A stretch of 17,866 nt of DNA. It comes from Candidatus Nanohaloarchaea archaeon (GTDB lineage Archaea; Nanohalarchaeota; Nanosalinia; Nanosalinales; Nanosalinaceae). The notes beneath the pieces were generated by a model, which had not been told where the DNA came from, ran no database searches, and worked only from the letters and a program-made list of their open reading frames with translations. Every line of letters starts with the position of its first letter. Positions within the stretch are counted from its first letter, which is position 1. Below, one piece after another: positions 731 to 17,698 of the stretch. Position numbers and translations under genes: made by a program. Location of the stretch: assembly GCA_046497485.1 (NCBI GenBank), contig JAWOFP010000001.1, positions 1 to 17,866 on the forward strand, written 5' to 3'.

Positions 731-1648
731 ATGTTAGAAGCACCAGTTACAAGAGACGAAATTGAGAACGCACCGATAAAAGCAAAAATCAAAGCAGGAG
801 AAGAAGTCGTCAAAAAGGCCTTAGAAGAATACGACAGCGAAAACGTTGTCATAGGATTTACAGGCGGAAAAGACTCAACCTTAACTGCTTGGCTTGTCAA
901 AAGAGTCTGCGAAGAACACGGATTCGACAAACCAAAGTTCATGTTCGTAGACCATGGACAGCACTTCGATGAGTTAGAAGACTATGTCGAGAGACTAGCA
1001 TCCAACTGGGGGTTCGAAGTAATGACGGCTAAGAACCAGGACCTAATTGAGAAAGCAGACGAGCCCGGAGATATGGTTCCGGTAGCAGAACTAAATCCGC
1101 GTAACCAAGAAGAGGCCTCAAGAATCGACGAAGAAATGGATGAAGTTCCTTGGTTGATGGATACAGAAGCCGGAAACCACTTACTCAAGACGGTTCCTAT
1201 GAACGAGCTCTTGGAGGAACATGGAATTGAAGCTGTAATTAACGGTGTTCGATGGGATGAACACGAATCTCGTGGAGATGAAGACTTCTATAGTCCAAGA
1301 GAGGATCCGGACCACATCAGAGTACACCCAATCCTCCAGTTAGATGAAAGAGATGTATGGGATGTCTCATGGTTCCACATGGTACCCGACATCACAGGGG
1401 TAGATGTCTCCGAATACCCTGAGGATGAATCGGACTTGCCTGAAGGCCTTTCAAAAGACGATGTACCGATCAGTCCAAAGTACTGGGCAGGATTCAGGTC
1501 TCTTGGATCAGAAGTGTCAACCGATAAATCCGATGAAATCCCTGCATGGCTACAGGATGTAGAAAACACTAAGGAAAGAGCAGGAAGAGCCCAGAACAAA
1601 GACGACAAAGAAATTATGGACAAACTTCGAAAATTGGGCTATATGTAA
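731..1648 (+). CDS. cysD: PAPS reductase-superfamily PP-loop protein, CysD-like (sulfate adenylyltransferase subunit 2 type)
   Basis: TGGKDS PP-loop, LKT, GVRWDE..SR, RVHPIL, FRSLG and C-terminal ERAGRAQ...MDKLRKLGYM resembling the CysD tail. Lacks the CysH ECGLH tail and Fe-S cysteines. Start moved from 695 to ATG 731 because the 695 ATG lies inside the palindrome directly after the TATA-like box. Confidence 0.75.
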   Translation: MLEAPVTRDEIENAPIKAKIKAGEEVVKKALEEYDSENVVIGFTGGKDSTLTAWLVKRVCEEHGFDKPKFMFVDHGQHFDELEDYVERLASNWGFEVMTAKNQDLIEKADEPGDMVPVAELNPRNQEEASRIDEEMDEVPWLMDTEAGNHLLKTVPMNELLEEHGIEAVINGVRWDEHESRGDEDFYSPREDPDHIRVHPILQLDERDVWDVSWFHMVPDITGVDVSEYPEDESDLPEGLSKDDVPISPKYWAGFRSLGSEVSTDKSDEIPAWLQDVENTKERAGRAQNKDDKEIMDKLRKLGYM

Positions 1649-1675
1649 GGTAGAAGGCCTCTTTAGCCACTTTAT

Positions 1676-2080
1676 TCATATCTCTTCCAGTTTTTCTGTT
1701 TTTTCTTTATCTTTGAGGTGTTTGTCTCCGGTTATTATTTTCAAACCGTGTTCTCTTGCTTTTGATAGTATTATTGCATCCATTAGCCCGAAGTCAGAGA
1801 ATTTTTCCCTCTGTTTTGTTTTTATTATTCCTGCGTCGGATCCTATATCCGTGTTCAAAGAGAGAACAGTCGAGTTAGATTCTACAAAGTCTCTAATTTC
1901 GGCCCAGCGATGATCTGTTTTCAGATTGTTGCTGTGGAAGTTATCTGACAGTTCAGCGATTGAGATAATAGATGTGTAGCATTCTTTATCTGATTTCAAG
2001 ATGCTGTATATTTTCTTTCCTTTCTCACTGCCTATGTAGAATTCTATCCACGCCCAGGTATCTAACAAATACTCACTCAT
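1676..2080 (-). CDS. vapC: VapC-type PIN-domain toxin
   Basis: YLLDTWAWIEF, SIISIAEL, GLMDAIIL and IITGDKHL PIN motifs. ATG at 2080 overlaps the antitoxin stop by 8 nt (ATGAGTGA). Confidence 0.9.
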   Translation of the reverse strand: MSEYLLDTWAWIEFYIGSEKGKKIYSILKSDKECYTSIISIAELSDNFHSNNLKTDHRWAEIRDFVESNSTVLSLNTDIGSDAGIIKTKQREKFSDFGLMDAIILSKAREHGLKIITGDKHLKDKEKTEKLEEI

Positions 2081-2282
2081 TTTCCCATTTCCGGTCATTA
2101 CCGTCTCTTATATTTTCTTTATCTTCAATCTTCATGGAGCCAAACATTTCATCTATATTAGGAGCTTCAAGCTCTTTCTCCGCTATTTCTTTCAGCAGCT
2201 CGTCAAATGAACCGAAATTCTTCTTACTTTTCAACTTCTTGAGCTTCCGGTGGGTATCACTTCCAATAGTTACAGTAGTCAT
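2073..2282 (-). CDS. vapB: VapB-type antitoxin (N-terminal RHH-like domain)
   Basis: 69 aa directly upstream of and overlapping the PIN gene; MTTVTI beta-strand then two helices (SFDELL), C-terminal EMFGSMK tail typical of archaeal VapB. Confidence 0.85.
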   Translation of the reverse strand: MTTVTIGSDTHRKLKKLKSKKNFGSFDELLKEIAEKELEAPNIDEMFGSMKIEDKENIRDGNDRKWENE

Positions 2283-2286
2283 AATA

Positions 2287-2318
2287 GTAATTGGTAATTA
2301 GTAATTGAAATGCTTTTT
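2287..2318 (-). promoter_or_regulatory. vapBC promoter with three tandem 7-bp repeats (putative autoregulatory operator)
   Basis: Minus strand reads AAAAAGCATTT-CAATTAC-TAATTAC-CAATTAC-TATT-ATG. TTTCAA lies about 29 nt upstream of the ATG; heptads at 2287-2307. Confidence 0.6.
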
Positions 2319-2343
2319 GGTCCAGATATGAATATGTCTTGGT

Positions 2344-3084
2344 TTATTCTACCATTTCTTCAGATAATTCCTCTATATCTGAGACTTCCTCTGTGGACAT
2401 GTTATATCTTCTTTCGGTGTAGCGATTAACTGAGAACTCTTGAGGCACATATTCTACATTTTCTGTGACTAGGCCTGGCGCAACTTCTTCCTCAACTACC
2501 TCTCTTTCATAGTAAGCGATAGATGCTTGGCCTTCTGGGACATAAAAATTATCTAGGCCTTTTCTTCCTGCGGCTTCTGCTTTTTCCAGTATTCCTCCGA
2601 CTCTTCCTATCCGTCCTTCTCTGGTTATTGTGCCGGTTACCGCTGTTTTGTTATCTACCGGGTTATCTTCTATTGCGGCGATTGTTGCAATGGTCATTGC
2701 TGCTCCTGCTGAAGGGCCGCCGACAAAGCTTCCGTCAATTTCAAAGCTATAGGTAATGTCTTTGGAGCTTAAATCTTCCTCAGTAAACTCTTCGGCAACT
2801 GCTCTAGCAGTTCTTGCGGAGAGCTGTGTGTCTGTCTCGATGAAAGGATCTGTGTTCAGTAATAGGCTTCCGTCTCCAGGGGAAATCCTGGCCCTTGCTT
2901 TTCCTAAGGCGCCTTCTCCTTGACTGGAGACTGCTGCGATATAGGTCTCAGCCGTTCTAGTACCTTCAAAAGGTTCTTCCTGGAAATTAGGTGCTTGAAG
3001 GTTAAGTAAGAGTAGAGTGAATAATATTCCGGCTGCAAACGCCAAGGCGACATCAAGCTCAAGGTTTTCGATAGAATCTCTCAT
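2344..3084 (-). CDS. Membrane-anchored Lon-type (S16) protease domain protein, no AAA+ module
   Basis: N-terminal TM helix; GGPSAGAAM (catalytic Ser), TAVTGTI and VGGILEKAEAA (catalytic Lys) Lon_C motifs; only 246 aa. Confidence 0.85.
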   Translation of the reverse strand: MRDSIENLELDVALAFAAGILFTLLLLNLQAPNFQEEPFEGTRTAETYIAAVSSQGEGALGKARARISPGDGSLLLNTDPFIETDTQLSARTARAVAEEFTEEDLSSKDITYSFEIDGSFVGGPSAGAAMTIATIAAIEDNPVDNKTAVTGTITREGRIGRVGGILEKAEAAGRKGLDNFYVPEGQASIAYYEREVVEEEVAPGLVTENVEYVPQEFSVNRYTERRYNMSTEEVSDIEELSEEMVE

Positions 3085-3137
3085 AACTCTGTAATTTTTC
3101 AGGGATTGATTTCAATCTTTAGCTACAAAGATAATTT

Positions 3138-3800
3138 ATGGATCTTATTTTTCTTGGGATGAACAAAGCAGGCGAAAAAGTTCTTGAATGGCTGGAACAA
3201 AAAGAAGAAGTCAATATTAAAGCCGTTATTGAGGAAAAAGAAGGCCTTGAAAAAATAAGAGATTTGAGGCCTGAACTAGTCATTTCATCAGGATTCGAAC
3301 ATATCGTTCCTAAGGAAATCATTGATATTCCTGAGAAAGGCATTGTCAACTTACATCCTTCTTATCTTCCTTATAACCGAGGAGCGCATCCATACATCTG
3401 GCCTTTAATCGAAGAAACTCCTGCTGGAGTTTCCGTCCATTTCATGAATGAGAACTTGGATGAAGGCCCTTTAATCGCTAGGAGAGAAGTAGAAATTAGG
3501 TCTGATGACAACGCCAAATCTCTGAGAGATCGGTTAATGAAACATCAAGCAGAGATTTTCAAGGAAAACTGGGAGAAAATACTCGAGGGAAAATCCAGGC
3601 CTCAGGATTTGGAGAAGGGAAATGTCCATTACAAAAGTGATTTGGATCAAATTTCTAACCTGGACTTAGATGAAGAGATGAGCTTAAGAAGGGCCTTAAA
3701 CTTGTTAAGAGGCCTGAGTTACGGTGAGAGGTCTCTGGCGTTTTTTGAGGAAGATAAAACTTATCGAATAAATTTCAGTATTGAGAAGGACTCAAACTAA
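3138..3800 (+). CDS. N10-formyl-THF-dependent formyltransferase, probably an NDP-amino-sugar N-formyltransferase
   Basis: VNLHPSYLPYNRG, GVSVHFM and LDEGPL motifs of the Formyl_trans_N fold; short C-terminal extension rather than the full Fmt C-domain. Confidence 0.85.
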   Translation: MDLIFLGMNKAGEKVLEWLEQKEEVNIKAVIEEKEGLEKIRDLRPELVISSGFEHIVPKEIIDIPEKGIVNLHPSYLPYNRGAHPYIWPLIEETPAGVSVHFMNENLDEGPLIARREVEIRSDDNAKSLRDRLMKHQAEIFKENWEKILEGKSRPQDLEKGNVHYKSDLDQISNLDLDEEMSLRRALNLLRGLSYGERSLAFFEEDKTYRINFSIEKDSN

Positions 3801-3825
3801 AAAACTTGAATGCTAAACAATAGTT

Positions 3826-4566
3826 ATGTCGAAGAAAAGGGTTTCTCTCACTTTAAATCAGACTTTGCTGAAGCGTGTTGATGCGGAAGCAGATCACAGA
3901 TCGTTGAATAGGTCGCAGATGGTCGAAGAAATAATTGAAGACTATATACGTGGACAGACCATCGATACCGCAGTGATTCTATGTGGAGACCCTGACTTAT
4001 CGCCTTTGAAGGAGATTAATGGGAGGCCGGTACTATCTCACATACTTGAAGGATTACAGGACAAAGGCCTTACACGAGCTATAATTTTAGCTGGAGGTAA
4101 CCGCGAAAAGCTTCAGTCTCATTTCGGGGAAAAAGGATTCGGAATTACTCTAGATTATGTCTCAGATGAGGTGGAAGGGCCTGCTGAGGCCTTGAAAAAA
4201 CTAGAGGATAGGATCGGCAAGACTTTCCTAGTACTAAATGGTGATGTGGTGCTGGACTTGGATATTGAGGACATGGTTAGTGTGCATCGACAGGAAGACT
4301 CGGTCGCGACCATGGCGTTGCGGACGGCAGATGATCCTTCTCAGTATGGAGTTGTTAGAATGAAGGGTCGGACAGTCTTAGGGTTCGAGGAGAAGCCTGA
4401 ACCTGGCGAGGAGCCTACCCGGTTGGTCAATGCCGGTGCCTATATCTTTGAGCCTGAAGCGTTTAGTATTTTAGAAGAAGATCTCGACAGCTTTTTCGAA
4501 GAACTCTCAAGTGAGAAGCAGCTTTCAGGATATATTTACGGCGGTAAATGGGATAAAGCCGATTAA
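3826..4566 (+). CDS. RHH (CopG-like) DNA-binding domain fused to degenerate sugar-phosphate nucleotidyltransferase domain
   Basis: Residues 1-42 (KRVSLTL...LLKRVD...NRSQMVEEIIEDYI) match the RHH pattern. The remainder has AVIL, GRPVL, FLVLNGDV, YGVV, FEEKP and VNAGAYIF of NTP_transferases but lacks GxGTR/PK. Confidence 0.85.
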   Translation: MSKKRVSLTLNQTLLKRVDAEADHRSLNRSQMVEEIIEDYIRGQTIDTAVILCGDPDLSPLKEINGRPVLSHILEGLQDKGLTRAIILAGGNREKLQSHFGEKGFGITLDYVSDEVEGPAEALKKLEDRIGKTFLVLNGDVVLDLDIEDMVSVHRQEDSVATMALRTADDPSQYGVVRMKGRTVLGFEEKPEPGEEPTRLVNAGAYIFEPEAFSILEEDLDSFFEELSSEKQLSGYIYGGKWDKAD

Positions 4567-4970
4567 AACCTGTTTACAAGTTCTGCTATATCTTCTTCAA
4601 CTATCGACAGTAGATTGTAAAGCACCGAGACACCCATTCCTCCTAGAGCAAACTTCATGTAAGGTTCGAGGCCGGTCTGAAGAATGTAATGAGTGAATAT
4701 CATTGGCGCCAGTGCTGAAAGATAATGTATAGTTGAAAGTACTAGAGGCGCCTGATTTTCTGAGGCCTCAGTCTTTCTACCGAACAAAGCTAATGCAAGC
4801 ATCCCGAACCCTAGTACTGCCCCAAAACCATATGATAGTGCTAGAGGAAGGTTTGGTGCTCCAAACTCATTGATCAGTAATGCTCCTGAACCCCAGAAAG
4901 CGATTGTGAATCCGTATGCTCTTGATTCTCCTGAGATCATGGAACGCATGTAGTTTTTCTCTTTACCCAT
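4563..4970 (-). CDS. Small integral membrane protein (about 4 TM), unknown function
   Basis: 135-aa ORF with four hydrophobic segments; convergent 4-nt overlap with the neighbouring gene end. Confidence 0.75.
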   Translation of the reverse strand: MGKEKNYMRSMISGESRAYGFTIAFWGSGALLINEFGAPNLPLALSYGFGAVLGFGMLALALFGRKTEASENQAPLVLSTIHYLSALAPMIFTHYILQTGLEPYMKFALGGMGVSVLYNLLSIVEEDIAELVNRF

Positions 4971-5049
4971 GAATTCAACTTGTTTTTCTTTTCTTTTATT
5001 CAGTTGGGGTTGGGAAAGACGGTTAAAGATTATAGTTATACTGAGGGTT

Positions 5050-5412
5050 ATGGGAAGAATCGAGAAGCCTTGGGGTTATGAAGAGCAAATTCTCGCCACA
5101 CAGGTAGATGTAGGCGGCGAGAGAGGAATGCTAGGTATGAGACGGCTAGTTATTAACTCCGATGAAATGACATCTTATGCAGTGCATGAAACTCAAGCGG
5201 ATATAATCTACTTGGAGAATGGCTCTGCAGTACTCAGAAAAGAAGACGAGATGGAAGAACTGGAACAAGGAAACGCATGCATTGTAAGAAGCGGAGAAAA
5301 ACATCAGATACAGAACATCGATTCCAAAGTCGCCGAAGTACTGGAGATCTCATTCCCATACAGGCCTGACGATATAGAAAGAGTTGAGGACCCTTACAGC
5401 GAATCAAGATAA
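5050..5412 (+). CDS. Cupin-domain protein, phosphomannose isomerase type II/ManC C-terminal-like
   Basis: EKPWGYE start, H...GEKHQIQN, LEISFP..DDIERVEDPY. Start moved from 4969 to ATG 5050, which follows a GAAAGACGGTTAAAG BRE/TATA-like element about 27 nt upstream. Confidence 0.8.
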   Translation: MGRIEKPWGYEEQILATQVDVGGERGMLGMRRLVINSDEMTSYAVHETQADIIYLENGSAVLRKEDEMEELEQGNACIVRSGEKHQIQNIDSKVAEVLEISFPYRPDDIERVEDPYSESR

Positions 5413-5415
5413 AGC

Positions 5416-5712
5416 ATGAATCTGTTGAAAAGCTTTCTTACAGGCCTTGCAGCAGCCGCAATAATCTTTGGCACAGTGGAAATAATAGGGTTCAATAGTT
5501 ATACTTGGTCAATGATTCTCTACATGTATATTGTCTTAGCAGTCTTTGTATCAATGGAATCCAGATATGATTCAGGCCTTAAAGAAATAGTTAATCATCT
5601 GGGGAATATCCGTTCCAGAATGCTGTTTGTGATAGATGAGGAAGAGAGAAAGGTTAAGAGAGTCTTCACAGGAGAGGAATTCAAGATAAAGGATTCGGAA
5701 AAAGTTCAGTAA
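5416..5712 (+). CDS. Small membrane protein (2 TM plus charged tail), unknown function
   Basis: Starts 3 nt after the cupin stop; two N-terminal hydrophobic helices. Confidence 0.65.
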   Translation: MNLLKSFLTGLAAAAIIFGTVEIIGFNSYTWSMILYMYIVLAVFVSMESRYDSGLKEIVNHLGNIRSRMLFVIDEEERKVKRVFTGEEFKIKDSEKVQ

Positions 5713-6533
5713 GAATACTCCTCCACTAATTCTCCGTCCGCATCATAAATATAGGCTGTGTCGCCATTCTGATTCCAGATAGGCCTTCCGCTATCCTGGG
5801 TAAATTTCGCATCGGAATTATCGGTATAAAGCCTAATAGATTCGCCGGTTTCTATCTCTCCATCGTCAAAAGTATAACTATTTCCACTAAAGTCCTCAAC
5901 ACTCCAGCCGTCTAACTCTATACTTTCGTCCATTGTGTTTTCTATCCGGATGTATTCGCCTTCTCCTTTCGAGGCGTCAGGCTGAACTTCTATATCTACA
6001 GAAACACCGTCTTCATTATTTCCTGATTGGAACTCCTTGTTATTATTCATCATCTCATCCATCGAATCCATCAAGTTCGACTTTCTATCTTCCAAGGCCT
6101 CTAAATCGGTTCCCTCAAACTCTTGCTCTACAGATCCGGATACATTTCTTTCAATTAGAGTTCCTTCCGGTCCACGGACCTCAACTTTACTCATTTCAGA
6201 CCTCTCTACCTGAATTAAAAGGCCTTCAGGAGTCTCCAACCTTCTCTCAACTCTACCTGGTGTTTTCACCACTTCAAGTAGCTTGTCTGAACTCTCTAAT
6301 GTTCTCTTGGAACGGTTGCTAGTTCTGTTGACCGTCATCGTCTCGAAAGCCGTCGATACTACGCGCACAAATCTATCAGAGTTCAGAGAAGTCGATATTT
6401 CAACAGGTTGAGACTCGTTATTTTCAAGGCCTAGAGGTCGCTGTTCGTCGGGAAGAGTCTGTGATGCCGCAGGAATTGCCAGAAAACCCACTAAAACTAG
6501 CGAGATCAAAACTGAGTTATTGAAATCCGGCAT
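5706..6533 (-). CDS. Secreted protein with C-terminal lamin tail domain (LTD)
   Basis: Hydrophobic signal peptide ending PAASQ; C-terminal EYIRIEN...IELDGWSVED...YTF...IWNQNGDTAYIYDADGELV is the LTD consensus. Confidence 0.85.
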   Translation of the reverse strand: MPDFNNSVLISLVLVGFLAIPAASQTLPDEQRPLGLENNESQPVEISTSLNSDRFVRVVSTAFETMTVNRTSNRSKRTLESSDKLLEVVKTPGRVERRLETPEGLLIQVERSEMSKVEVRGPEGTLIERNVSGSVEQEFEGTDLEALEDRKSNLMDSMDEMMNNNKEFQSGNNEDGVSVDIEVQPDASKGEGEYIRIENTMDESIELDGWSVEDFSGNSYTFDDGEIETGESIRLYTDNSDAKFTQDSGRPIWNQNGDTAYIYDADGELVEEYSY

Positions 6534-6558
6534 AACTCTTATTTCTAAGTTCTATAAT

Positions 6559-7557
6559 TTAAACTTTGTACTCTTCTGTCAAAACCTCTAAAACCGTCTT
6601 GCAGAATCCGAATATTACCGGCCCTATAAATAATCCTACAGCGCCGAACACATATACTCCGCCTATAACTCCCATCAATACTGCTCCGGGATGAATCTCG
6701 GCTCTTCTATCTACCAAGTAAGGCCTCAAGATGCTGTCCGATGGACTGACAACTGCCAGACCGTAAACCAAAATGAATAATCCTTCTGGAATATTCCCTA
6801 CTGCTATCATGTAAAGTCCGGCCGGCGCCCAGACAAGGAACGCACCTATAACAGGTATGAATGAAAGCAAGATCATTATGAAGGTCCAGAACGCTGCATT
6901 AGGTATTCCAGCTATAAACAGTGCTACTCCGCCTAATAGGCCTTCAACTATGGCGACTAGGACGTGTCCTTTTAGAATAGATTTTGTCATCAATGATGCG
7001 TTGGAGTAAAGCTCGCTCTGAGTATCCTCTTCTACTGGGGTTACGCTTATCAGCCATTGATGGAGTTTATCACCATCTTTGATCATGTAGAATAGAGTGA
7101 ACAATAATATTAGTATTCCGATCGCCAGGCCTGTAATGAAGTCTAATAACTGAGTTACTCCTCCGAAAGCGATTGATGTGAAGTTTTCAAGGCCTTGACT
7201 TATCTCCTCTTGAATATCTATTTCTCTTCCCGTCCATTCCGAAATAAATGTTTCTAATTCCTGTATTTCTACCGTTTCTACCTGGTCTACATTGTCTACT
7301 AAAGTTCTTGCATCCTGAATAACTGCGCCTAACGAGAGCGCGAAAGGGGCTATAATTGCGGCTACAAAAACTATTATTACAAGGCCTGTAGATAATGCAG
7401 GCCCTATAAAAGGTTCAACCTTGCTTTGAATAGGTTTTAAGACAAAAGCTAGTATTATGGCGGTTATAATATATCCTAGGAACGGCGTCACCATCAGCAA
7501 GGAAAGTATAACTAGAAGCGCTGCCAGGCCTCCTAGAAATGGTTTTTCAAAATCCAT
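6559..7557 (-). CDS. AI-2E family transporter
   Basis: 332 aa multi-TM; FYMIKDG, SFIPVIGAFLVWAP, DSILRP, IHP and GLFIGPVI motifs. Confidence 0.9.
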   Translation of the reverse strand: MDFEKPFLGGLAALLVILSLLMVTPFLGYIITAIILAFVLKPIQSKVEPFIGPALSTGLVIIVFVAAIIAPFALSLGAVIQDARTLVDNVDQVETVEIQELETFISEWTGREIDIQEEISQGLENFTSIAFGGVTQLLDFITGLAIGILILLFTLFYMIKDGDKLHQWLISVTPVEEDTQSELYSNASLMTKSILKGHVLVAIVEGLLGGVALFIAGIPNAAFWTFIMILLSFIPVIGAFLVWAPAGLYMIAVGNIPEGLFILVYGLAVVSPSDSILRPYLVDRRAEIHPGAVLMGVIGGVYVFGAVGLFIGPVIFGFCKTVLEVLTEEYKV

Positions 7558-7578
7558 ATATCTATGTTTTAGTTAAAC

Positions 7579-8766
7579 TTAGATAAAACCTATGCCGAAG
7601 TAACTCAAGGCAGGGTAGATAAGCACCGACATTGATGCTGCCCAGGAATTTTTCAGCAATGCTACAGTCCCGATAAATGAGGATACTCCGAATACCAGGA
7701 AGCCGTACAGGCCTGTGGTGTAACCAACTGTAATGCAGATTGCGGAGACTGTGAAAAACGCTAAAGTCCTGAAATCAAATTTTCTAACTATCTTTAGGAA
7801 GAAGTCCAGGTTTTTCATTGCTGTGATTCCTGCGATGCCTGAAGCAAAGAGGCAACAGCCAATCAGGAACATTATTTGAGGAAGTCTGACATCTGAAATA
7901 GTCTGTAAAGCGACCGAGCTACCAGATCTAGGACTGCCTATCAAGTAAAGCGCCAGAAACGAGATCAGTATATCGCTGGTGTTTACACCTCCAAGACCTA
8001 CCATGAAGTTCTCTCTTTCCGAGTCCATTAGAGGCGTCAAAAAAGTCGTAGCGATTGCTGCGCCGATACCTGGGACTATTCCTGCTAGAAGGCCTGCTCC
8101 AAAACCAGTGCATCCGGATAAAACATTTTTTTCTCCAATATTCCAGTTCTTTTTCTGTCCAGGTATTCCAATCTCCTGGGTTAAACTGTAGAGGATTGCG
8201 GGTAAGGCAAATAGTCCTGCAAAGATAGGCATCAGGATAAACTGCTGTTGGAAACCTGAGTTAAGGGTTAGGAGGCCTAAAGTTCCTGACAGTATTGAGA
8301 CAATTACAGCATTGATTCTAGACTCTGATTCCAGGATTATGAAGAAAAGGAAAAATAGTAGAATGAAACCCATAACAGATTCAATATATTCATAAACCAG
8401 TTTTAGGCCTACATAAATTACTGGTAAAGCAAGTATGAATACGTAGACTGATGTGATTCCTCCTACTAATGTCAGCATAAACGCTTTCCGTCCTTCTCCT
8501 TCCGCGACCATATCAAGGCCTGGCAAAGAGCTTAAAGCATTTTCAGCTTCCGGCGCCTTCAGGAAAAGCGCTGGTAAAAAGTCGTTCAAGGTATGGGAAA
8601 CACTTAGGCCTGAGATAAAGGCCATAAAACTGATGAAATCCGGCTGAATCACAAAGTAGAATGGTAGAATTGTGAAGATGACTGTGTTGGGGTGTATCCC
8701 TGGTATTATGCCTGTAAGGCTCCCTGCCAGAACTCCAATCGTTATGTAGAGCAGGATTTCTAGCAT
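7579..8766 (-). CDS. TctA-family (tripartite tricarboxylate transporter-like) archaeal membrane protein
   Basis: GSLTGIIPGIHPN N-terminal motif with an internal repeat (GLLAGIVPGIG), plus DFLPALFL and GSPRSG; about 11-12 TM. Confidence 0.85.
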   Translation of the reverse strand: MLEILLYITIGVLAGSLTGIIPGIHPNTVIFTILPFYFVIQPDFISFMAFISGLSVSHTLNDFLPALFLKAPEAENALSSLPGLDMVAEGEGRKAFMLTLVGGITSVYVFILALPVIYVGLKLVYEYIESVMGFILLFFLFFIILESESRINAVIVSILSGTLGLLTLNSGFQQQFILMPIFAGLFALPAILYSLTQEIGIPGQKKNWNIGEKNVLSGCTGFGAGLLAGIVPGIGAAIATTFLTPLMDSERENFMVGLGGVNTSDILISFLALYLIGSPRSGSSVALQTISDVRLPQIMFLIGCCLFASGIAGITAMKNLDFFLKIVRKFDFRTLAFFTVSAICITVGYTTGLYGFLVFGVSSFIGTVALLKNSWAASMSVLIYPALSYFGIGFI

Positions 8767-8817
8767 GTGAAATGGTTTTTCGACATGGATAAAAAAGCCA
8801 CATCATAAATTGAGGTT

Positions 8818-9188: not shown

Positions 9189-10802
9189 TTAATTATCAAG
9201 TTGCTCCATGAACTTGGAGAATGCAGGCCTAGTAATCGTAATTCCGACCATGATTCCAAGGATTGTGGTCCATGCAAAGTCATGGATTGAGCTCATTGCA
9301 GCGCCTGAAGGCCCAGCCGTGAAAATAAATCCTCCTATCAGTGCTGCAAAGACTCCGATAGCTGTGAAGTGCCTATTGCTTTTTCTGCCGTAGAAGTTGT
9401 ACATTAGGAGGCCTACCCCAGCTAAAGCTAGGAATAAGCTTACTGTTCCAGGGTAGATTATTGGTGACATGGCTCCTATTGTTGAGGCTGCCGATGTGAA
9501 GATTACGAAGAATGCTCTCTTCATTTTCTCTGTCCAGGACTGAATAACTTCTCTATCAGATTCATCTGTAATTATGATTTGGTCGTCTACTCCTGTTCCG
9601 ACTGCCGCGATTATTCCTGCTATTGCTGAAAGGCTGAGTGTTCCTGCGGTTGTGAACCAGACTCCTAGTAGAATGTAGACTTCTGAAGCGCCTGTAACAA
9701 CCATAGGAATCGCAACTTTTGGATTCTGATATCTTGCAGTAACCAGTAGGCCTGTAGCAATTAGAGATCCTACAATGGATAGGATTGAAGCCCTTAGGAA
9801 GTCATCTCCTAGTGCGGATGAAAGTGTTGTAGTAGATTCCACTTCTACGCTTACTGGTAGGCTTCCGGACTGAAGGATTGCCTGCATATTTTCAAGACTG
9901 GACTGTGCTTCGTCATACGTATCATCTCCTCCGCTTATCTGGCTTTGAGTCAAGACTTGATCTTTGAATACTCCGCTCATTCTGAGTGCTGAGTTTCTCT
10001 CGCCGTCAACATATAGCCCCATTCGTGCGAATTCTCCATTGTCATGTTGCAGGTAGCCTTCATCAGTATTTACGCTTGTTCGGTAGTTCTGTGCGATCCG
10101 ATTGACATTTCTTGCTGCATCGCTTGTAATCGTGGTCGGGAACTGCCAGTTGTAAGGCCCGGAGCCTGAAATCTGGCCGGAGCCAACATCCTGTACATCT
10201 GCGCCCGTATAAGTCACGACCTCGATATTTGCGTATCTCTCTGTATTATTGATGTATACAAACTCTGGGCCTTCCTCGCTTAATGTGAATCTTTCGTCAG
10301 GCCTGTAGGTCTCATCTCCTACTTCTACACTGCCGTTTTTCTCATCCCAAACAAAGTTGTATGTTTCTTCTATTGTGAACTCTCGCTCATCTTCGACCTG
10401 GATCGGCATCCTTGCCTCGAAACGCCCTTCCTGTGATATTACTTCTCGTATCTGGCTTTGATTCGTTACACCGACTTCCACTTGTAACCTGTAGTTTCCG
10501 CCTCCTATGTCCACGGTTCTGACTTGTGGATCTGGAAGGCCTAACTGTGTCATTCTTATCGATAGTACGTCTCTTACTTGGTCGGCTAGTTCCTGCTGTT
10601 CCTCTCCTGTGGCATTAGTTTCCATTTTTAGAAGTAACCGTGTTCCTCCTGTGAACTCTATGCCTAGTCGGTCCTCAATATCTGTTTCTAGCTGGACATC
10701 TCCGTCTTCACCCTGTACGTAGCTAGGGTTAAGCATTACAGTCGCTACTAGAAGGCCTGCGAAGAATACCCAGACTCTCCATTCCATTGCTAACTCTTTC
10801 AT
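9189..10802 (-). CDS. secD: Protein translocase subunit SecD
   Basis: LGIEFTGGTRLLL, LQSGSLPV, IAGIIAAVGTGVDDQIIITDE and TRPAF motifs. ATG 10802 overlaps the secF stop as ATGA. Confidence 0.93.
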   Translation of the reverse strand: MKELAMEWRVWVFFAGLLVATVMLNPSYVQGEDGDVQLETDIEDRLGIEFTGGTRLLLKMETNATGEEQQELADQVRDVLSIRMTQLGLPDPQVRTVDIGGGNYRLQVEVGVTNQSQIREVISQEGRFEARMPIQVEDEREFTIEETYNFVWDEKNGSVEVGDETYRPDERFTLSEEGPEFVYINNTERYANIEVVTYTGADVQDVGSGQISGSGPYNWQFPTTITSDAARNVNRIAQNYRTSVNTDEGYLQHDNGEFARMGLYVDGERNSALRMSGVFKDQVLTQSQISGGDDTYDEAQSSLENMQAILQSGSLPVSVEVESTTTLSSALGDDFLRASILSIVGSLIATGLLVTARYQNPKVAIPMVVTGASEVYILLGVWFTTAGTLSLSAIAGIIAAVGTGVDDQIIITDESDREVIQSWTEKMKRAFFVIFTSAASTIGAMSPIIYPGTVSLFLALAGVGLLMYNFYGRKSNRHFTAIGVFAALIGGFIFTAGPSGAAMSSIHDFAWTTILGIMVGITITRPAFSKFMEQLDN

Positions 10803-11746
10803 TTCCATGGTAGTCCACCTCTAAAGCTGCTTATGCTGTCAAAGTCGCCTTCGACATATTTCTTCAATATTATCGTGTTACCCATCCAAGTTAATGGGAT
10901 ATCTGCTAGAAGCCCAATCACCATTACCGCTGCAATGTTTGAAAGTGCTGAAGGCCCTACGATTGAAACCGATATGAGGTATAGTAGTGTGAATCCTGCG
11001 ATCCCTCCTGAGCTCATAGTCAGGCCTGTTTTCATTGAGCTCCACATCCGGGATTTTACTGTCCCTCTATTCATTTTTAATATGCGTGTGGAGAGCACAA
11101 TATCTGTGTCAACGGAATAACCTATAAGCATCAGTAAAGCTGCTAAAGAGCCTAGTGAAAGCGGAACGCCTATTAGACTCATTCCTGCTGCTGCAATTAG
11201 TATATCTCCTCCTGCAGCAAATACTACTGCGATCGAAGGGGTGAAGTCCTTGAAAGCATAAAATATTACTGTGCTCATAACAGTGAACGCAAGTATAAAT
11301 GCGAACTGAGCCTGCTGGAAGAACTGACCTGAGACTGCTGCAGAAATCGAATTGAAGCCATCGACTTCTGCTTCATATCCTCCTGACTCAAGTATCTCCA
11401 AGGCCTCTTCTCTTTCGATTTCTGGAGGCGCAACCTGTACAAGTAATAACTGTCGCTCGCCGGTATCTTGTGTCAGCACAGAAGTTCCAGGCCTACCGTT
11501 ATCTGCGAAGAGCTGTTCTACTTCTGTCGAGCTGAAGTCTCCTTCTACTTCAAAGGTTATCTCTGTTCCTCCGGCGAAATCTGTTCCTTTTTCTAGGAAT
11601 TCTCCTGTGGTTGCGAAGTTGAAGAAAAGCACTCCAGAAGCGATTAAAATCAGTAATAGAGGCACAACAAAGTATTTATCGTAGTCCTCATACATCTTAT
11701 CGAACATTTTGCTACTGCGCTTTTCTACATTATCAGCCCATTCCAC
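10799..11746 (-). CDS. secF: Protein translocase subunit SecF
   Basis: GTDFAGGTEI and AALLMLIGYSVDTDIVLSTR motifs, 6 TM. GTG 11746 lies about 25-30 nt downstream of TTTAAAA (11776-11770); alternative ATG at 11707. Confidence 0.93.
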   Translation of the reverse strand: MEWADNVEKRSSKMFDKMYEDYDKYFVVPLLLILIASGVLFFNFATTGEFLEKGTDFAGGTEITFEVEGDFSSTEVEQLFADNGRPGTSVLTQDTGERQLLLVQVAPPEIEREEALEILESGGYEAEVDGFNSISAAVSGQFFQQAQFAFILAFTVMSTVIFYAFKDFTPSIAVVFAAGGDILIAAAGMSLIGVPLSLGSLAALLMLIGYSVDTDIVLSTRILKMNRGTVKSRMWSSMKTGLTMSSGGIAGFTLLYLISVSIVGPSALSNIAAVMVIGLLADIPLTWMGNTIILKKYVEGDFDSISSFRGGLPWK

Positions 11747-11836
11747 ACCACAGAATGGGTCTAAAATGCTTTTAAACCCGACGAATCAGTTTTCGAAAGC
11801 TCATAAAAAACCTTTTAACCAAAAAACAGTTTAGGC

Positions 11837-14455
11837 ATGAACGATAAACTAGATCAGGCAATTGACAAGGCCTCAAATTACAGTTTTGGAGCAGCAATAC
11901 TAACAGTTTTCTTACTGGCTTTCGGATTAAGATACTATCCTGCCAGAAACATTGAATACCTTCAGGCCTTGGATCCTTACAATCTTTTCAGGATGTCACA
12001 GCAAATCGCATACACTGGATCTCTACCTGATCTCGACTTCATGCGTTATTTCCCATATGCATCGCCTACATATGTTTCACACCAGCTTAACCTCTGGATT
12101 CCGGCTATAATGTATAAAATGGGAGGATTCCTAGCATTCGAGAATTACCTAGGATTTGCTAAAACTATCGCCCCTCTCTTCTCAGCTTTATCTGCAGTTA
12201 CAATGTACTTTTTAGGAAGAGAACTATACGATAAATACACAGGCCTAGGAGCAGCATTCTTCATAGCAGTCCTTCCAGGAGCAATGTTCAGAGGAAGCGC
12301 AGGCTTCTTCGAGAAAGAAGCTATCGGAACATTCTTTATGATGGTCTCACTGCTCTTCTTCACACTAGCCTGGAAAAACAGGAACTGGGCTTACGGAATG
12401 GTTTCAGGCCTCGCACTAGGAATCTTCTCAGCCACATGGGGAGGAAGCCAGATGCTATGGCTACTCTATCCAATGATTATAGGATTCATGTTGTTAATAA
12501 ATGAAGCAACCGAGGATATGATTCCTGCTTTTACGCCGATAGTGATAATTGCGGCGTTTGTTGGAGCAGTATTTAATCCAAACAGATTGTGGCTCGGCAG
12601 CAAGGAGGTACTACTGAGCTTTGGGTTTTTAGGCCTTCTATGGGTGCGGTATCTTGTTGAAGAATTAGATATTGTTGCAGAAGATAGACTGGATTACTTT
12701 ATGCCTTCAACATATATCGCTGGCGCTTTTGTCTTAGCTTTATCGCCTTTATACTCTCAGACTGTAGCAAGCTTAGTCTACTCAATTTACACAACTGCTA
12801 CACAGTCAGGAAGCGGAGTAATTGGAGGGACAGTTGCGGAAAACGCATCAACACAGATGAGCCAGTTAATCAGCCAGATGGGTTCGGGAGTTCTCAGTGG
12901 AGTATTCCCTGGAGTTGGGGCAATTTCCTCACTGTTTGGGACCTGGACATTAGTCTTCATAGGATTCCCTATGATGATCTCAACCCTCTACCTAATGTTT
13001 GGAAGAAAATACGGTATAATAGAAGAAGGCCTATCTGGAAAAAGGCAGTACGGAGTCATTGCCGGAGTAATAGCGGCTTGGGCTATAGGATTCACAGCAT
13101 TCTTCGAGGGATACAGAGCCTTCGGACTGATCGCAGGCCTAGTTCTTTCAGTAGTGTTAGCCTTAATCAATTTCTACATTGACGAGGACTCAGCATTTAA
13201 TATCTCAGTAATAACGCTAGTTTTCACAGCTTTAGTCGCTTCACTGTATGCATTAGGACAGAACAGCGTTCAGGAAACAGCCACTATTCTAAGAGGAGTG
13301 GCGTACCCAATATGGTTATCTATAGCAGGCCTTGGAATAGTTTATACTACTGAAAGCTTCGAGCCAATGGATATAGGCATGGACTGGTACAAAATTATCC
13401 CCGTATTCTGGCTAGGAACCAATCTATTAGGTGCGGTTGCCAGAAGCAGACTTGTCTATCTTGCGACTTTCTCGGCCGCGCTCGGTGCAGGATATATGCT
13501 CTCAAGAGTGATTAGAAAGCTTCAGACAATGGAGTTTTCCGATACAGGCCTTGACTCCTCAAGAGTAAGAATAGTTTTACTACTGGTCTTGGCTCTTGGA
13601 GTAGTTACAGTTAATGTTGCTGCAGGATTCTTCGCAGTCTCAAGCTCATCAGGATCTCCTAACCAGTTATGGATGGAGAACCTGGATTACTTAGATGAAG
13701 AGGCACCGAATGGATCAGTCACAATGTCATGGTGGGACTACGGTTACCACTTCCAGTCAATCGGTAGAACGGGTACAGTAGCTGACGGAGGAAACTTTGG
13801 GTACTACACAAGTGAAGAAAAAGTGAACTATCCGTTAGCGCAGTACTTCGCGTCGAATGATACAAGGGAGAACTACGACGAGCTCTACAACAAGCATTCG
13901 GTTGATTACGTTGTGCTGGATAACACGATGATTGGAAAGTATTCGGCTGTAAGCCAGATCGCGAACAGAGACAACGAAAACTTCAATTCAATGTATCAGG
14001 TTTCAACTCCAAACTCGGCGCAGCAGTCAATATCTGAGTCTGAAGACAGGACTGTCATGAATTTCCAGGGAAGAGTTGCTCAGTGGAATGCACAGATTTA
14101 TGCTCCTATCGAGATTAACAATAACACTGTTGAGGTATCGGATACAGTGACTATGCAGACTCATACAGGAGAAAGCATAGAAATAAACTGCATTCTGACA
14201 GAAGACGGAATACAGAACTTAGGAGATGAAGACTCTGAAGAGTCCAACTTCTGCGTAGCAATCGATCCTTACTACAGCCTAGAGAGAGGCCTTTCATTTG
14301 AAGGCTTCCAGTCAAGGATTACAGTGATTCCAAGAGATGTTGCAGATCACAACTTGATGAGGCTATACTTCATGGATGGTCATGGAATGGACTATCTAGA
14401 AAAAGTCGAAGAGGGATCAAACGACTACGTCAAAATGTGGGAAGTTACGGAATGA
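11837..14455 (+). CDS. aglB: Oligosaccharyltransferase AglB (STT3 family)
   Basis: WWDYG motif, ALDPY, TVAEN (TIxE-like) and DNTMIGK (DK motif); large N-terminal TM region plus soluble C-terminal domain. Confidence 0.95.
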   Translation: MNDKLDQAIDKASNYSFGAAILTVFLLAFGLRYYPARNIEYLQALDPYNLFRMSQQIAYTGSLPDLDFMRYFPYASPTYVSHQLNLWIPAIMYKMGGFLAFENYLGFAKTIAPLFSALSAVTMYFLGRELYDKYTGLGAAFFIAVLPGAMFRGSAGFFEKEAIGTFFMMVSLLFFTLAWKNRNWAYGMVSGLALGIFSATWGGSQMLWLLYPMIIGFMLLINEATEDMIPAFTPIVIIAAFVGAVFNPNRLWLGSKEVLLSFGFLGLLWVRYLVEELDIVAEDRLDYFMPSTYIAGAFVLALSPLYSQTVASLVYSIYTTATQSGSGVIGGTVAENASTQMSQLISQMGSGVLSGVFPGVGAISSLFGTWTLVFIGFPMMISTLYLMFGRKYGIIEEGLSGKRQYGVIAGVIAAWAIGFTAFFEGYRAFGLIAGLVLSVVLALINFYIDEDSAFNISVITLVFTALVASLYALGQNSVQETATILRGVAYPIWLSIAGLGIVYTTESFEPMDIGMDWYKIIPVFWLGTNLLGAVARSRLVYLATFSAALGAGYMLSRVIRKLQTMEFSDTGLDSSRVRIVLLLVLALGVVTVNVAAGFFAVSSSSGSPNQLWMENLDYLDEEAPNGSVTMSWWDYGYHFQSIGRTGTVADGGNFGYYTSEEKVNYPLAQYFASNDTRENYDELYNKHSVDYVVLDNTMIGKYSAVSQIANRDNENFNSMYQVSTPNSAQQSISESEDRTVMNFQGRVAQWNAQIYAPIEINNNTVEVSDTVTMQTHTGESIEINCILTEDGIQNLGDEDSEESNFCVAIDPYYSLERGLSFEGFQSRITVIPRDVADHNLMRLYFMDGHGMDYLEKVEEGSNDYVKMWEVTE

Positions 14456-15564
14456 TTGAGCTAATACTGCTGATTTCAGGCCTACTGGGGTTCCTGATAG
14501 TGTTTTTCGGAACCCCATTGGCAGAAGAATATTTGGCGGCTTCAGGAATCCTTGGTATTGATCAGCAGAAAGAAGAGAAACCGAGAGTTCCGACTTCTGG
14601 AGGCACAATAGTCTTACTTGGTTTTGTAGTAGCCCTCAGCTTCTTCTCAGGAGCAATCTCCCTTTTCACAAATGTTGCAATAAATGAGGCCTTGATTTTT
14701 GCTTCTCTAACATCTGTCACATTGATCGCGTTGATAGGATTAATCGACGATGTTCACGTTGATTTATCAAAAATCGTGGGAGAGGAGATTGAGAGAGACA
14801 TTCTGATTTCCGATAATAGAACTGTTATACATGAAAAAGCAGACTTTCTTTTCGGGGCGCCAGACCCAGAGATGGATAGGAAAGGCCTTTCACAGGCGGC
14901 CAAGATGACAATGGTTTTACCTGCTGTACTTCCATTGATTGCGGTCGGCGCAGGATCATGGACAATGAGCTTTCCTTTCATCGGAGCGATTGAATGGGGT
15001 CTGATTTATCCGCTTGTTCTCCTTCCATTAGGCCTGATGTTTGTATCAAATGCAGTGAACATGCTTGCAGGAGTAAACGGGCTTGAAGCAGGTCTTTCAC
15101 TAGTGGCATCGACCGCACTAGGGATTTTCGCTTTCCAGAATGGTAGAATTGAGGCCTCAGTTATCGCTTTTGTCCTTGCATCAAGTCTTGCCGCGTTTCT
15201 AGTTTTCAACCGTTATCCTTCAACTATACTTCCTGGGGACTCTCTAACATATCTCTCGGGAGCAGCAATGTTTTCAGCAATGGTCGCAGGAAACATGGAG
15301 AAGTTCGCGGTTGTACTGTTCATGCCTTGGCTAATTGAGTTCTTCCTGAAGGCTCGTTCAAGATTTGATGCAAGATCATGGGGACAGTTACAGGAAGAAG
15401 GAGAACTCAAATCATTCTACCTGAATACTTACTCACTAACTCACTTATTCATGGATAGAGGCCTGAATGAGAAACAGATCGCTCAGTCAATGATAGGTTT
15501 GATGGTTTTATGGGCTGCGTTCACACTTCTTCTCTTCAACTATGTTCCGCTTCTGAACCCATAG
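14452..15564 (+). CDS. aglH: Glycos_transf_4 polyprenyl-phosphate HexNAc-1-phosphate transferase, Alg7/AglH-like
   Basis: PTSGG, GLIDD, NAVNMLAGVNGLEAG, FNRYPSTILPGDSLTY and GNMEK closely follow the Alg7/GPT pattern. ATG 14452 overlaps the aglB stop as ATGA. Confidence 0.8.
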   Translation: MIELILLISGLLGFLIVFFGTPLAEEYLAASGILGIDQQKEEKPRVPTSGGTIVLLGFVVALSFFSGAISLFTNVAINEALIFASLTSVTLIALIGLIDDVHVDLSKIVGEEIERDILISDNRTVIHEKADFLFGAPDPEMDRKGLSQAAKMTMVLPAVLPLIAVGAGSWTMSFPFIGAIEWGLIYPLVLLPLGLMFVSNAVNMLAGVNGLEAGLSLVASTALGIFAFQNGRIEASVIAFVLASSLAAFLVFNRYPSTILPGDSLTYLSGAAMFSAMVAGNMEKFAVVLFMPWLIEFFLKARSRFDARSWGQLQEEGELKSFYLNTYSLTHLFMDRGLNEKQIAQSMIGLMVLWAAFTLLLFNYVPLLNP

Positions 15565-15704
15565 ATTACTGCTAGACAGATTACATAGATGATTGCGAGG
15601 CCTAAAAGGATATCTGTTGAATTCTTAAAGATCAGAAATGTGAGTAGAATTACTGCTGCGGCAGACATTTCCACTGCAAATCGCCTTATTATTTTCTTCT
15701 TCAT
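15540..15704 (-). CDS. Small 2-TM membrane protein, unknown function
   Basis: Basic N-terminus plus two hydrophobic helices. ATG 15704 preferred over 15722 because TTTATA (15736-15731) then sits about 30 nt upstream. Overlaps the aglH 3' end by 25 nt. Confidence 0.5.
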   Translation of the reverse strand: MKKKIIRRFAVEMSAAAVILLTFLIFKNSTDILLGLAIIYVICLAVIYGFRSGT

Positions 15705-15759
15705 TTTCTCGAATCTTTTCATAGAAATGGTATAAATTTGTGGAGGTTAAAATGTATGT

Positions 15760-15933
15760 GTGACTTACTTCCAGTGTCCGGAATGCGGGTTCAAGCAGAG
15801 AAGTAAGGCAAAGGATAGGATTAAGTGTCATAGATGCGGCCGGAGCTACAAGAAGAGGAGGAAATACGAGGCCTCGAAAAGTCCAGATGAGGAGAAAGGC
15901 ACAGGATTCTTCAAGTATACTAAAGAGGACTAA
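15760..15933 (+). CDS. CPxCG-type zinc-finger microprotein (57 aa)
   Basis: Below ORF-track cutoff. GTG start, MTYFQCPECGFKQRSKAKDRIKCHRCGRSYKKRRKYEASKSPDEEKGTGFFKYTKED; two CxxCG knuckles; TATAAA at 15731-15736; stop 3 nt before the glycosylase start. Confidence 0.8.
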   Translation: MTYFQCPECGFKQRSKAKDRIKCHRCGRSYKKRRKYEASKSPDEEKGTGFFKYTKED

Positions 15934-15936
15934 AAA

Positions 15937-16788
15937 ATGGAAAAATATGAGATAGAAGCAAAGAATTTTGATTTGGAACTTACTCTGACATGTGGGCAGA
16001 CTTTTTGCTGGAATCGTATTAATGGAGACCTCTATGGAGAAGGACCAGAGAAATTCTACACTTTCAGAAAGGGAGAGCCGTTAATTGTCGAACAGAAAGA
16101 AGATACTATTATTGCGGAGACAGAATTGCCGGAGAGAGAAGTAAGAAATGCTTTGAGCTTAAATCACGAGCTTGAGGGGATATATGCGACGTTCCCAAGC
16201 GATGGAAAACTTGAGAAAGCTAGGACCGAATTAGAAGGCCTCAGAATCATTCAGGATGAATTTTTTCCGTGCCTGATTTCCTATCTCTGCTCTCCTCAGA
16301 TGCAGATCCCAAGAATAAAACAGATGCACAACAGAATAGCTAAGGAGTATGGTGAAACTGTAGAGTATGCTGGAGAAGAACTTGTGAGATTCCCTGATAT
16401 GGAAGAACTTTCAGATGCAACTGAAGCAGACCTTAGAGACTTAGGCCTAGGGTACAGAGCAAAATATGTCGCAAGAACTATTGAGATACTTCAAGAAGAA
16501 GGTCTTTCAATTTCTTCAGACTATGAAGAAGCTAGAGAGGATTTGAAGAACCTTTACGGCGTTGGCGATAAAGTAGCTGACTGTGTTCTGCTTTTCTCAC
16601 TTGAGTTTTTAGAGGCGTATCCATTAGATACTTGGGCGTTGAAATCTGCGGAAAAGCATTACCCTGATCTTCATTCTGAGGATTACGATGAGGCCTCAGA
16701 GAATCTCCGTGAATACTTTGGACCTTACTCCGGCTATGCGCAGGAGTATTTATTCCATGCGGCTAGAAAAGGGATTATAGAGGTGTAG
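15937..16788 (+). CDS. ogg: 8-oxoguanine DNA glycosylase/AP lyase, Ogg1-type (HhH-GPD)
   Basis: N-terminal LELTLTCGQTFCW (OGG_N), GLRIIQD, LGLGYRAKY, HhH GVGDKVADCVLLFSL with catalytic Lys, PLDTW Asp, and GYAQEYLF. Confidence 0.9.
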   Translation: MEKYEIEAKNFDLELTLTCGQTFCWNRINGDLYGEGPEKFYTFRKGEPLIVEQKEDTIIAETELPEREVRNALSLNHELEGIYATFPSDGKLEKARTELEGLRIIQDEFFPCLISYLCSPQMQIPRIKQMHNRIAKEYGETVEYAGEELVRFPDMEELSDATEADLRDLGLGYRAKYVARTIEILQEEGLSISSDYEEAREDLKNLYGVGDKVADCVLLFSLEFLEAYPLDTWALKSAEKHYPDLHSEDYDEASENLREYFGPYSGYAQEYLFHAARKGIIEV

Positions 16789-16791
16789 AAA

Positions 16792-17004
16792 ATGCAGGTA
16801 ACAATGGTTAGAGATGATCTATCTGATGAGACTGTAGATGATTTTGAGGTAAGTGAAGGCCTGAAAGTTGGAGAGTTTCTAGATCAGCAAGGTATTGAGA
16901 GGCAAGAGGTACTGGTTTCTAGGGATGGAAAGATTATTTCTGAGACTGCCGAGTTAGAGGATGGTGATGAGATTAATGTTTTCGATGTTATCGCAGGCGG
17001 TTAA
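16792..17004 (+). CDS. Ubiquitin-like beta-grasp protein (SAMP/MoaD/ThiS family)
   Basis: 70 aa ending LEDGDEINVFDVIAGG with C-terminal di-glycine; GAGGTG SD-like motif at 16780-16785. Confidence 0.9.
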   Translation: MQVTMVRDDLSDETVDDFEVSEGLKVGEFLDQQGIERQEVLVSRDGKIISETAELEDGDEINVFDVIAGG

Positions 17005-17035
17005 AATTTAAACTATAGGCCTCAATTCTTGTTTT

Positions 17036-17362
17036 ATGCAGTTCTTTGATGTGGAGGATAAGTCTGAGCGCGATATTGTTTTTGATGTCTTTGATTTGAA
17101 TGATCTTCAGAAATCTATTTTTGATACTTTGGAAGATCGGACTTTGACTGTTCAGGAGATTGCTGATGCTGTTGATAGGAATCGTTCGACTGTTCAAAGG
17201 GCTTTACAGGAGATGACTGATAAAGATTTATTGATGCGCGAAGGTAAGACTGATAAGACGGTCTACTATGTCTATACTTCGCTTCCTATGGATGAGATCA
17301 GAGATATTACTTCTGATGCTTTAGAGGAGTGGCATGAAACGATTCAAGGTAAGCTGGATTAG
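17036..17362 (+). CDS. Winged-HTH transcriptional regulator (TrmB-like)
   Basis: LTVQEIADAVDRNRSTVQRALQEM helix-turn-helix followed by YYVY wing; own TTTAAA box at 17007-17012. Confidence 0.88.
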   Translation: MQFFDVEDKSERDIVFDVFDLNDLQKSIFDTLEDRTLTVQEIADAVDRNRSTVQRALQEMTDKDLLMREGKTDKTVYYVYTSLPMDEIRDITSDALEEWHETIQGKLD

Positions 17363-17649
17363 AATTCCCAGAATAAGTATCCTAGATAGATTAATGCGAC
17401 TCCCTCGCTGATTAGAGGAAATAAAGGCCTGATTTCTATACCTGCGATTAATGATAGTACTCCTATTCCCAGGAAGAGGCCTAGAACCTGTTTTGATTCT
17501 TCTAGGACTAGTTCTTCTACTTTTTCCAAGGTAAGTTCATCTTTCGATCTAAATAAGACTATTAGAAGATAGAATTTTGCGAATACTGCTGTTGTGTGCC
17601 AAGAGGCCTCTACTATATCGTAGCCTGTGGATGTTAGAAATTCAATCAT
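17359..17649 (-). CDS. Small membrane protein (about 3 TM), unknown function
   Basis: 96-aa ORF with three hydrophobic segments; convergent 4-nt overlap with the HTH gene. Confidence 0.7.
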   Translation of the reverse strand: MIEFLTSTGYDIVEASWHTTAVFAKFYLLIVLFRSKDELTLEKVEELVLEESKQVLGLFLGIGVLSLIAGIEIRPLFPLISEGVALIYLGYLFWEF

Positions 17650-17698
17650 TTTGGGTGAAAGGCCTGATGGTTAGAAAAGGGTTAGGAAATGAGAATAT

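Follow-up and report, generated by a model that had tools for sequence, protein, structure and literature searches.

The cause of highly iterated palindromes (HIPs), which are usually tied to methyltransferases, has been open for three decades. In this study, we describe a word of this kind, the hexamer AGGCCT, in a Candidatus Nanohaloarchaea archaeon (assembly GCA_046497485.1, contig JAWOFP010000001.1, positions 1 to 17,866), and a two-gene AddAB-type helicase-nuclease that may read it. The whole 17,866-nt stretch is referred to as the window, and the genome that holds it as G000. HIP1 (GCGATCGC) and the alternate HIPs are described as short palindromes that exceed expectation more than 10-fold in genes and spacers, occur in all frames, are patchy among kin and are most tolerant at their outer bases (PMC4390886, PMC5861425, PMC13756078); AGGCCT resembles them in these respects. 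The alternate HIP of Synechococcus PCC 6312, CAGGCCTG, contains the AGGCCT hexamer and is reported at 0.37 per kb, with an observed/expected ratio of 14.7. Unlike HIPs, the word described here is archaeal, is a hexamer with nearly free flanks, reaches 3.4 per kb, and was found with neither a cognate methyltransferase nor MutS. It also differs in that an intact AddAB-type enzyme co-occurs with it, and perhaps in that its positions are conserved about like those of control words.

A second described system is Chi, the short dispersed word of AddAB (B. subtilis Chi AGCGG; PMC3321194) or RecBCD. The likeness lies in the enzyme, an SF1A helicase-nuclease whose second subunit appears to combine a helicase region that has degenerated with a PD-(D/E)xK nuclease, and in the word, whose loss here accompanies loss of the nuclease domain. 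Unlike Chi, AGGCCT is palindromic, has no GxGG and no strand skew, and stands at 30-50-fold odds over codon usage. Unlike B. subtilis AddB, the AddB of this study, known from sequence alone, lacks Walker A and Fe-S cysteines and matches no curated AddB model. DNA uptake sequences (DUS) and uptake signal sequences (USS) of Neisseria and Pasteurellaceae are likewise position-independent and enriched in the peptides they encode (PMC2817400), but they are reported to have an asymmetric core of 9-10 bp rather than a 6-bp palindrome. In Alcanivorax borkumensis, the AGGCCT hexamer is methylated by a type II system, with 1,674 sites reported (PMC12128166); no such enzyme is common to the AGGCCT-rich genomes of this study. 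Because no cognate methyltransferase like that of HIPs was found here, and the polarity, GxGG core and Fe-S cysteines of Chi systems are lacking, we file AGGCCT under neither. No published report of such a word in archaea was found by a literature search that left most subscription papers and supplementary oligomer tables uncovered, and a Chi-like stop signal of this kind was not found described for archaea.

The window contains exactly 70 copies of AGGCCT (816..17665), the first at 816 and the last at 17660-17665, or 1 per 255 bp. No strand is assigned to any copy, and the flanks are essentially unconserved. Base composition predicts 3.0 copies (a 23-fold excess), and 200 dinucleotide shuffles of the window gave 4.61 ± 2.08, with a largest value of 12 (a 15-fold excess). 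The original prediction, about 70 copies against about 3 expected, was therefore accurate, as was its estimate that three quarters of GGCC tetramers lie in the A..T context (70 of 92). It had also placed the word in all codon phases, on both strands and between genes, and this too holds. Over the 21 called genes, the three phases account for 9, 14 and 42 copies; 34 copies lie in plus-strand genes, 31 in minus-strand genes and 5 outside genes (1655..1660, 15598..15603, 15869..15874, 17017..17022 and 17660..17665). The coding examples it named read as stated: Lys-Ala-Leu in phase 1 (816..821, in the PAPS-reductase-family gene 695-1648), Glu-Gly-Leu in phase 2 (3242..3247, in the open reading frame 3138-3800), and Arg-Pro, written AGG CCT, in phase 0 (3267..3272 and 3597..3602). 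Of 85 synonymous opportunities in the window, 65 are filled.

The excess extends well beyond the window. The acidic proteins of G000 are in keeping with a nanohaloarchaeon. G000 (967,558 bp, 66 contigs, 97% complete) contains 3,249 copies, which makes AGGCCT its commonest hexamer; it occurs on every one of the 66 contigs at a mean of 1 per 298 bp, and the runner-up palindromic hexamer is only 1.6-fold above a second-order model. The genes of G000 hold 2,893 copies against 403 ± 16 in 20 synonymous-codon shuffles (7-fold), and the DNA outside genes holds 338 against 11 expected (30-fold). Of the 50 genomes of the family, 12 are rich (approximately 2-4.8 copies per kb), 37 are low and one, G004, falls in between; genus g2 is mixed, with two rich and four low members. 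None of 16 genomes from other families of the order is rich. The excess recurs in several single-contig relatives. The HIP-like description of the original prediction is thus upheld: the word is genome-wide, appears in any frame, survives the codon-shuffled null and is patchy among kin. The residues encoded by AGG CCT and GGC CT are common, which might suggest an artefact of codons, dipeptides or assembly; however, the shuffles, the single-contig genomes and the low genome G024, where the same peptides are filled at just 3-5%, already refute this explanation, to which we give practically no credence. Two further features of word usage were observed. ACGT is strongly avoided across G000 (0.49 of second-order expectation). 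In G024 (L164), GGCC-containing hexamers are avoided (0.06-0.9-fold) and a C5 methylase is encoded; judging by motif likeness, this is probably a GGCC restriction system.

In G000, 64-78% of the openings permitted by the protein carry AGGCCT, at 30-42-fold odds over the codon baseline. The odds are 32-52-fold in G005, 10-12-fold in 360 kb of G053 and 0.5-0.8-fold in G024. Arg-Pro dipeptides of G000 are written AGG CCT in 520 of 665 cases and are themselves enriched (1.59 vs 0.79 in G024); for every 1000 codons, orthologues offer approximately 14 opportunities if they come from rich genomes and approximately 9 if they come from G024. This skewed peptide use shows that the force behind AGGCCT has altered proteins. 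Individual positions turn over. Openings in G005 are filled at 79% if G000 carries a site there and at 72% otherwise, and the positional correlation (phi) of AGGCCT is close to that of control words in four genome comparisons (0.33 v 0.28; 0.20 v 0.10, confidence interval 0.11-0.28; 0.15 v 0.15; and -0.11 v 0.22). Near-matches are graded, with AGGCCT far above AGGCCC and AGGCCC above AGGCCR: AGGCCC/GGGCCT is at 2.9-5.3-fold even where the protein rules out the perfect word, AGGCCR is at 1.5-2.9-fold, and the remaining neighbours fall within control scatter. In the nearly free flanks, the only preference is a weak one for A at +3/+4.

Once opportunities are taken into account, copies still avoid each other at short range: the fill is 0.19 with a neighbour no more than 15 bp away and reaches 0.74-0.78 at distances of 100-300 bp. 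The log-odds advantage climbs from 1.4 to approximately 4 by a nearest-site distance of 60-100 bp and is flat beyond; the exclusion zone is narrower in G005. A benefit proportional to the gap was rejected, for it fitted more poorly than nearest-neighbour or harmonic forms. In G000, pair correlation shows no trend between 0.2 and 3 kb. For a 10-90 kb periodicity such as that of HIPs, a single G005 spectrum gives a top power of approximately 10 times the mean, with that mean as the only reference. No replichore skew was seen, AGGCCC and GGGCCT being even over 11 bins of G005. Foreign-looking islands are poor in AGGCCT. A scan for triple sites in viral sequences (11 of 64 parts, 122 loci) yielded tandem repeats as its inspected top matches, and none of the 40 matches listed looked halophilic.

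The candidate reader is encoded outside the window, at contig C62:17323-22499 of G000, by two genes that overlap, addB (836 aa) and addA (889 aa). An intact, closely coupled pair is also present in G005 and G053, two genomes chosen independently of the gene. In Pfam searches, AddA showed UvrD, UvrD_C and PD-(D/E)xK, and AddB showed UvrD_C and PD-(D/E)xK (PDDEXK_1), both weakly. AddA is an SF1A helicase with a C-terminal PD-(D/E)xK nuclease whose gene lies beside addB, and it scores below the equivalog cut-offs of the curated AddA models. For AddB, the Atlas match of rank 8 was 'helicase/nuclease subunit B' at 0.95, and a structure model from three sequences had a pLDDT of 39.7, too low to be of use. 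In the rich genomes G001 and G003, the AddA C-terminus adjoins Trm11. Low G024 has an AddA cut short at 759 aa that lacks the nuclease, and its addB and addA are separated by an insertion of two small genes that look toxin-antitoxin-like by eye.

Integrity of the pair was then compared with AGGCCT richness. The nanohaloarchaeal core clade of AddAB loci was drawn from scans of genomes and metagenomes (support 100) and extended with FastTree; 3.6-21 kb of flanking DNA per locus served to judge richness. Locus L558, which is cut by a contig end, L560 and L564, which are identical to L559 and L563, and the outer-clade loci were left out of the tally. Since the loci were retrieved by the gene, only gene integrity is a test. 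Ten of the 15 distinct full-length loci are rich (7.6-24-fold), as against none of the nine nuclease-truncated loci (0-4.2-fold); Fisher's p of 0.002 overstates this difference because kin are not independent. In the alignment, which included six truncated genome loci, these six also have a degenerate segment near the AddB N-terminus, G-x-F-A-x-T-P. The N-terminal helicase-like region of B. subtilis AddB is described as the Chi-reading locus (PMC3321194), and the segment may correspond to that region. Intact AddAB looks necessary, but not sufficient, for AGGCCT richness. Of the roles that the original prediction had offered for the word, recombination gains most support from this co-occurrence.

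We suggest, tentatively and at somewhat less than an even chance, that AGGCCT is a Chi-like stop signal for the AddAB-type enzyme of G000. The pair would resect DNA ends, with AddB reading the word, and the palindrome would serve both directions of travel. AddAB would load at a break, unwind the DNA and sometimes stop cutting on meeting single-stranded AGGCCT. Each copy would then limit the trimming of broken ends or win gene conversion, so that the word piles up; on a molecule without AGGCCT, trimming would run beyond the position in question, and a molecule with the word would serve as template for its repair, which would amount to a conversion drive. If recognition is weak per encounter, sites would add independently and interfere only within the footprint of the enzyme, and selection or conversion could drive the word to approximately 40-fold odds. 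A palindrome works from either side and so suits a chromosome without clear replichore polarity. The absence of a methyltransferase link and the unprotected flanks reported below would be expected of a word read in single-stranded DNA. The fuller proposal, plausible but rather doubtful as a whole, is that nanohaloarchaea have a palindromic Chi, that repair between chromosome copies spread the word until it filled two thirds of synonymous openings and changed the make-up of the proteome, and that the word decays on loss of the AddA nuclease and can switch (to GGWCC in one relative).

Several observations weigh against this Chi-like reading. The main difficulty is the scale of the odds. In E. 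coli, codon usage is reported to account for almost the whole frequency of Chi (bioRxiv 2021.07.08.451572); odds of approximately 40-fold therefore need strong drive or selection. An efficient stop should bring more benefit the longer the gap, which the flat advantage beyond 60-100 bp does not match. Chi is asymmetric, G-rich and chromosome-polarised, with a GxGG core described as common to E. coli and B. subtilis; AGGCCT is a palindrome without that core, and AGGCCC is unskewed by strand in G005. The AddB of G053 has no NCBIfam match and no sequence match in the PDB, and with no Walker A and only three cysteines it lacks the Fe-S and Walker A features of the B. subtilis type. No residue near the AddB N-terminus cleanly divides rich from other loci. 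The truncations sit at about three places in the tree and are therefore few as events, and addAB could not be scored in G002, G004 and most of the 37 low genomes. Five of the 15 full-length core-clade loci are not rich, two (L486, L487) with core-gene flanks and three (L561, L562, L565) with island-like flanks. Among 55 same-family loci outside nanohaloarchaea (Halobacteria and other lineages), AGGCCT is at most 2.2-fold. Two outer-clade loci have rich DNA beside a broken pair: addB is split in L572 (16-fold), and addA is frameshifted in L574 (8.8-fold, on only 5 sites in 3.4 kb). A different word may account for one exception. L457/L487, with an intact addAB among core genes and no AGGCCT excess, has 113 copies of GGWCC where synonymous shuffles give 58, a ratio that no other tested locus equals; none of 83 other loci exceeds 1.12-fold, and second place among 18 listed loci is at 1.44-fold. 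A switched word would fit this excess and is possible.

The original prediction had also considered a binding site for chromosome organisation and a signal of self-recognition. AGGCCT could be bound by an abundant DNA-binding or chromosome-organising protein, either unrecognised or an allele of a conserved one, with density rather than positions under selection. The graded near-matches, with AGGCCC enriched where a perfect site is impossible, agree with such a protein, as do the 10-30 bp scale of exclusion, which resembles a footprint, and a fill slightly higher in AT-rich flanks (0.63 to 0.71). All 50 genomes encode 2-5 histone paralogues and G005 encodes SMC, and a role of this type is favoured for HIP1 by Xu et al. 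(PMC5861425). Histone phasing was nevertheless rejected: a 10-bp AA/TT wave at the sites looked strong, but it is common to other WSSSSW hexamers and present in low G024, which has an 86% identical histone copy, and it does not predict fill (pooled z 1.1; G053 alone z 2.35). Histone-based chromosome organisation is therefore not supported. A screen for genes present in G000 and G005 and absent or weak in G024 returned 60-62 genes, of which 42 were scanned with Pfam and nine were profiled. None of the nine (DnaG, Mrr, PolB2, RadA type, a second Cdc6, SWIM, a small winged helix-turn-helix protein, a ribbon-helix-helix nucleotidyltransferase and an S-adenosylmethionine-dependent methylase) follows richness. 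The screen missed addAB because G024 retains a truncated copy; the pair appeared among the compared genes only as a length outlier. A binding protein would also leave the link with AddA truncation unexplained, and we regard it as unlikely, if well worth keeping in view. A signal for DNA uptake or cell-to-cell exchange, spread by molecular drive as for DUS/USS or as proposed for HIP1, appears improbable. It would agree with the enriched Arg-Pro and other encoded peptides, a trait that AGGCCT shares with uptake sequences (PMC2817400), with the site-poor foreign-looking islands and with the reported rise in transformation efficiency caused by HIP1 (PMC13756078). Yet a 6-bp palindrome discriminates self poorly, and the HIP1 effect requires methylation, for which no cognate enzyme was found here. 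ComEC was found in none of the 50 family genomes; the query recovered 10 of 14 controls, all bacterial, so an archaeal channel would escape it.

The remaining alternative is a modification-directed repair ratchet of the Elhai type, in which an unrecognised or host-supplied enzyme makes and protects functionless sites. AGGCCT is a reported methyltransferase target in Alcanivorax (PMC12128166) and lies within the Synechococcus HIP, and the C-to-T neighbour AGACCT/AGGTCT is at 2.8-3.2-fold over baseline where it can derive from a site, against 0.7-1.5-fold elsewhere. However, no methyltransferase common to the rich genomes was found when 50 genomes were searched with PF01555 and PF00145, five rich genomes with PF02086 and PF02384, and G000, G005 and G024 by motif scans, although these four Pfam families would miss an enzyme of novel fold or of host origin. 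Of the 12 rich genomes, one, G000 itself, encodes a C5 methylase, inside a site-poor McrBC island; D12 is in none of five rich genomes, and N6_N4 has no match above the cut-off in single-contig G005, G010 and G053. Matches to N6_Mtase were type I, long type IIG-like or Trm11 proteins, and weak PF01555 matches were rejected as the cognate enzyme because they are Trm11-type tRNA methylases. Single-contig G053 has none of the four families apart from such a Trm11 match. The labels Trm11, PolB2, McrBC and toxin-antitoxin pair are in part provisional. MutS was not found in G000, and NucS is present and ordinary. Site-directed mismatch repair guarding the flanks was rejected, since synonymous divergence is no lower near sites in four genome pairs. 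Between G053 and G022 (85 genes) it is 0.37-0.46 beside shared sites and 0.425 far away; in the smallest pair, G053 and G054 (12 genes), positions up to 400 bp from a site have lower values than those farther off, with no gradient. One-mismatch neighbours show no depletion. The origin by methylation or biased repair that the original prediction had put forward is thus not supported, and we consider a ratchet quite improbable.

The Chi-like reading is of interest for several reasons. A word on the scale of HIPs stands here in archaea with no methyltransferase found, both present and absent within single genera, and its candidate reader, a pair of proteins, is open to assay on linear DNA. If the reading is true, AGGCCT would be the first archaeal Chi and would offer a methylase-free mechanism for highly iterated palindromes; end resection in archaea would be regulated by sequence, and a repair enzyme would be able to rewrite a genome and its proteins. 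If AddAB does not read AGGCCT, the rich and low sister genomes are still a tractable system for finding what does.

Other features were noted in these genomes. Histone paralogues number three or four per genome here (C38:17434, C24:13746 and C48:16886 in G000), and a genome-wide 10-bp wave of AA/TT versus GC is present in rich and low genomes alike. At C53:98-4274 of G000 (L002), on a site-poor contig, the C5 methylase is divergent from an McrB-like and an McrC-like gene, and the locus is probably a recently acquired defence island. A membrane-anchored Mrr-family nuclease (C59:11255-11934) is frameshifted in G000, is intact in G005 and G053, and lies beside primase-like island genes. Archaeal DnaG (query L063:11697-12803) is in 36 of 50 genomes, but this query gave no match in single-contig G024 and G018 or in any of the four g21 genomes. 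RadA (G000 C52:1154-2098; L112:8045-8974) falls into two classes of identity to G005, 76-91% and 64-68%, that cut across genera and even divide g21, a pattern for which transfer is possible. Within the window, the gene at 3826-4566 encodes a ribbon-helix-helix domain fused to a nucleotidyltransferase and is present in 39 of 50 family genomes, and the PAPS-reductase-family protein (695-1648) has 87-90% identity across three genera against a median of approximately 61%.

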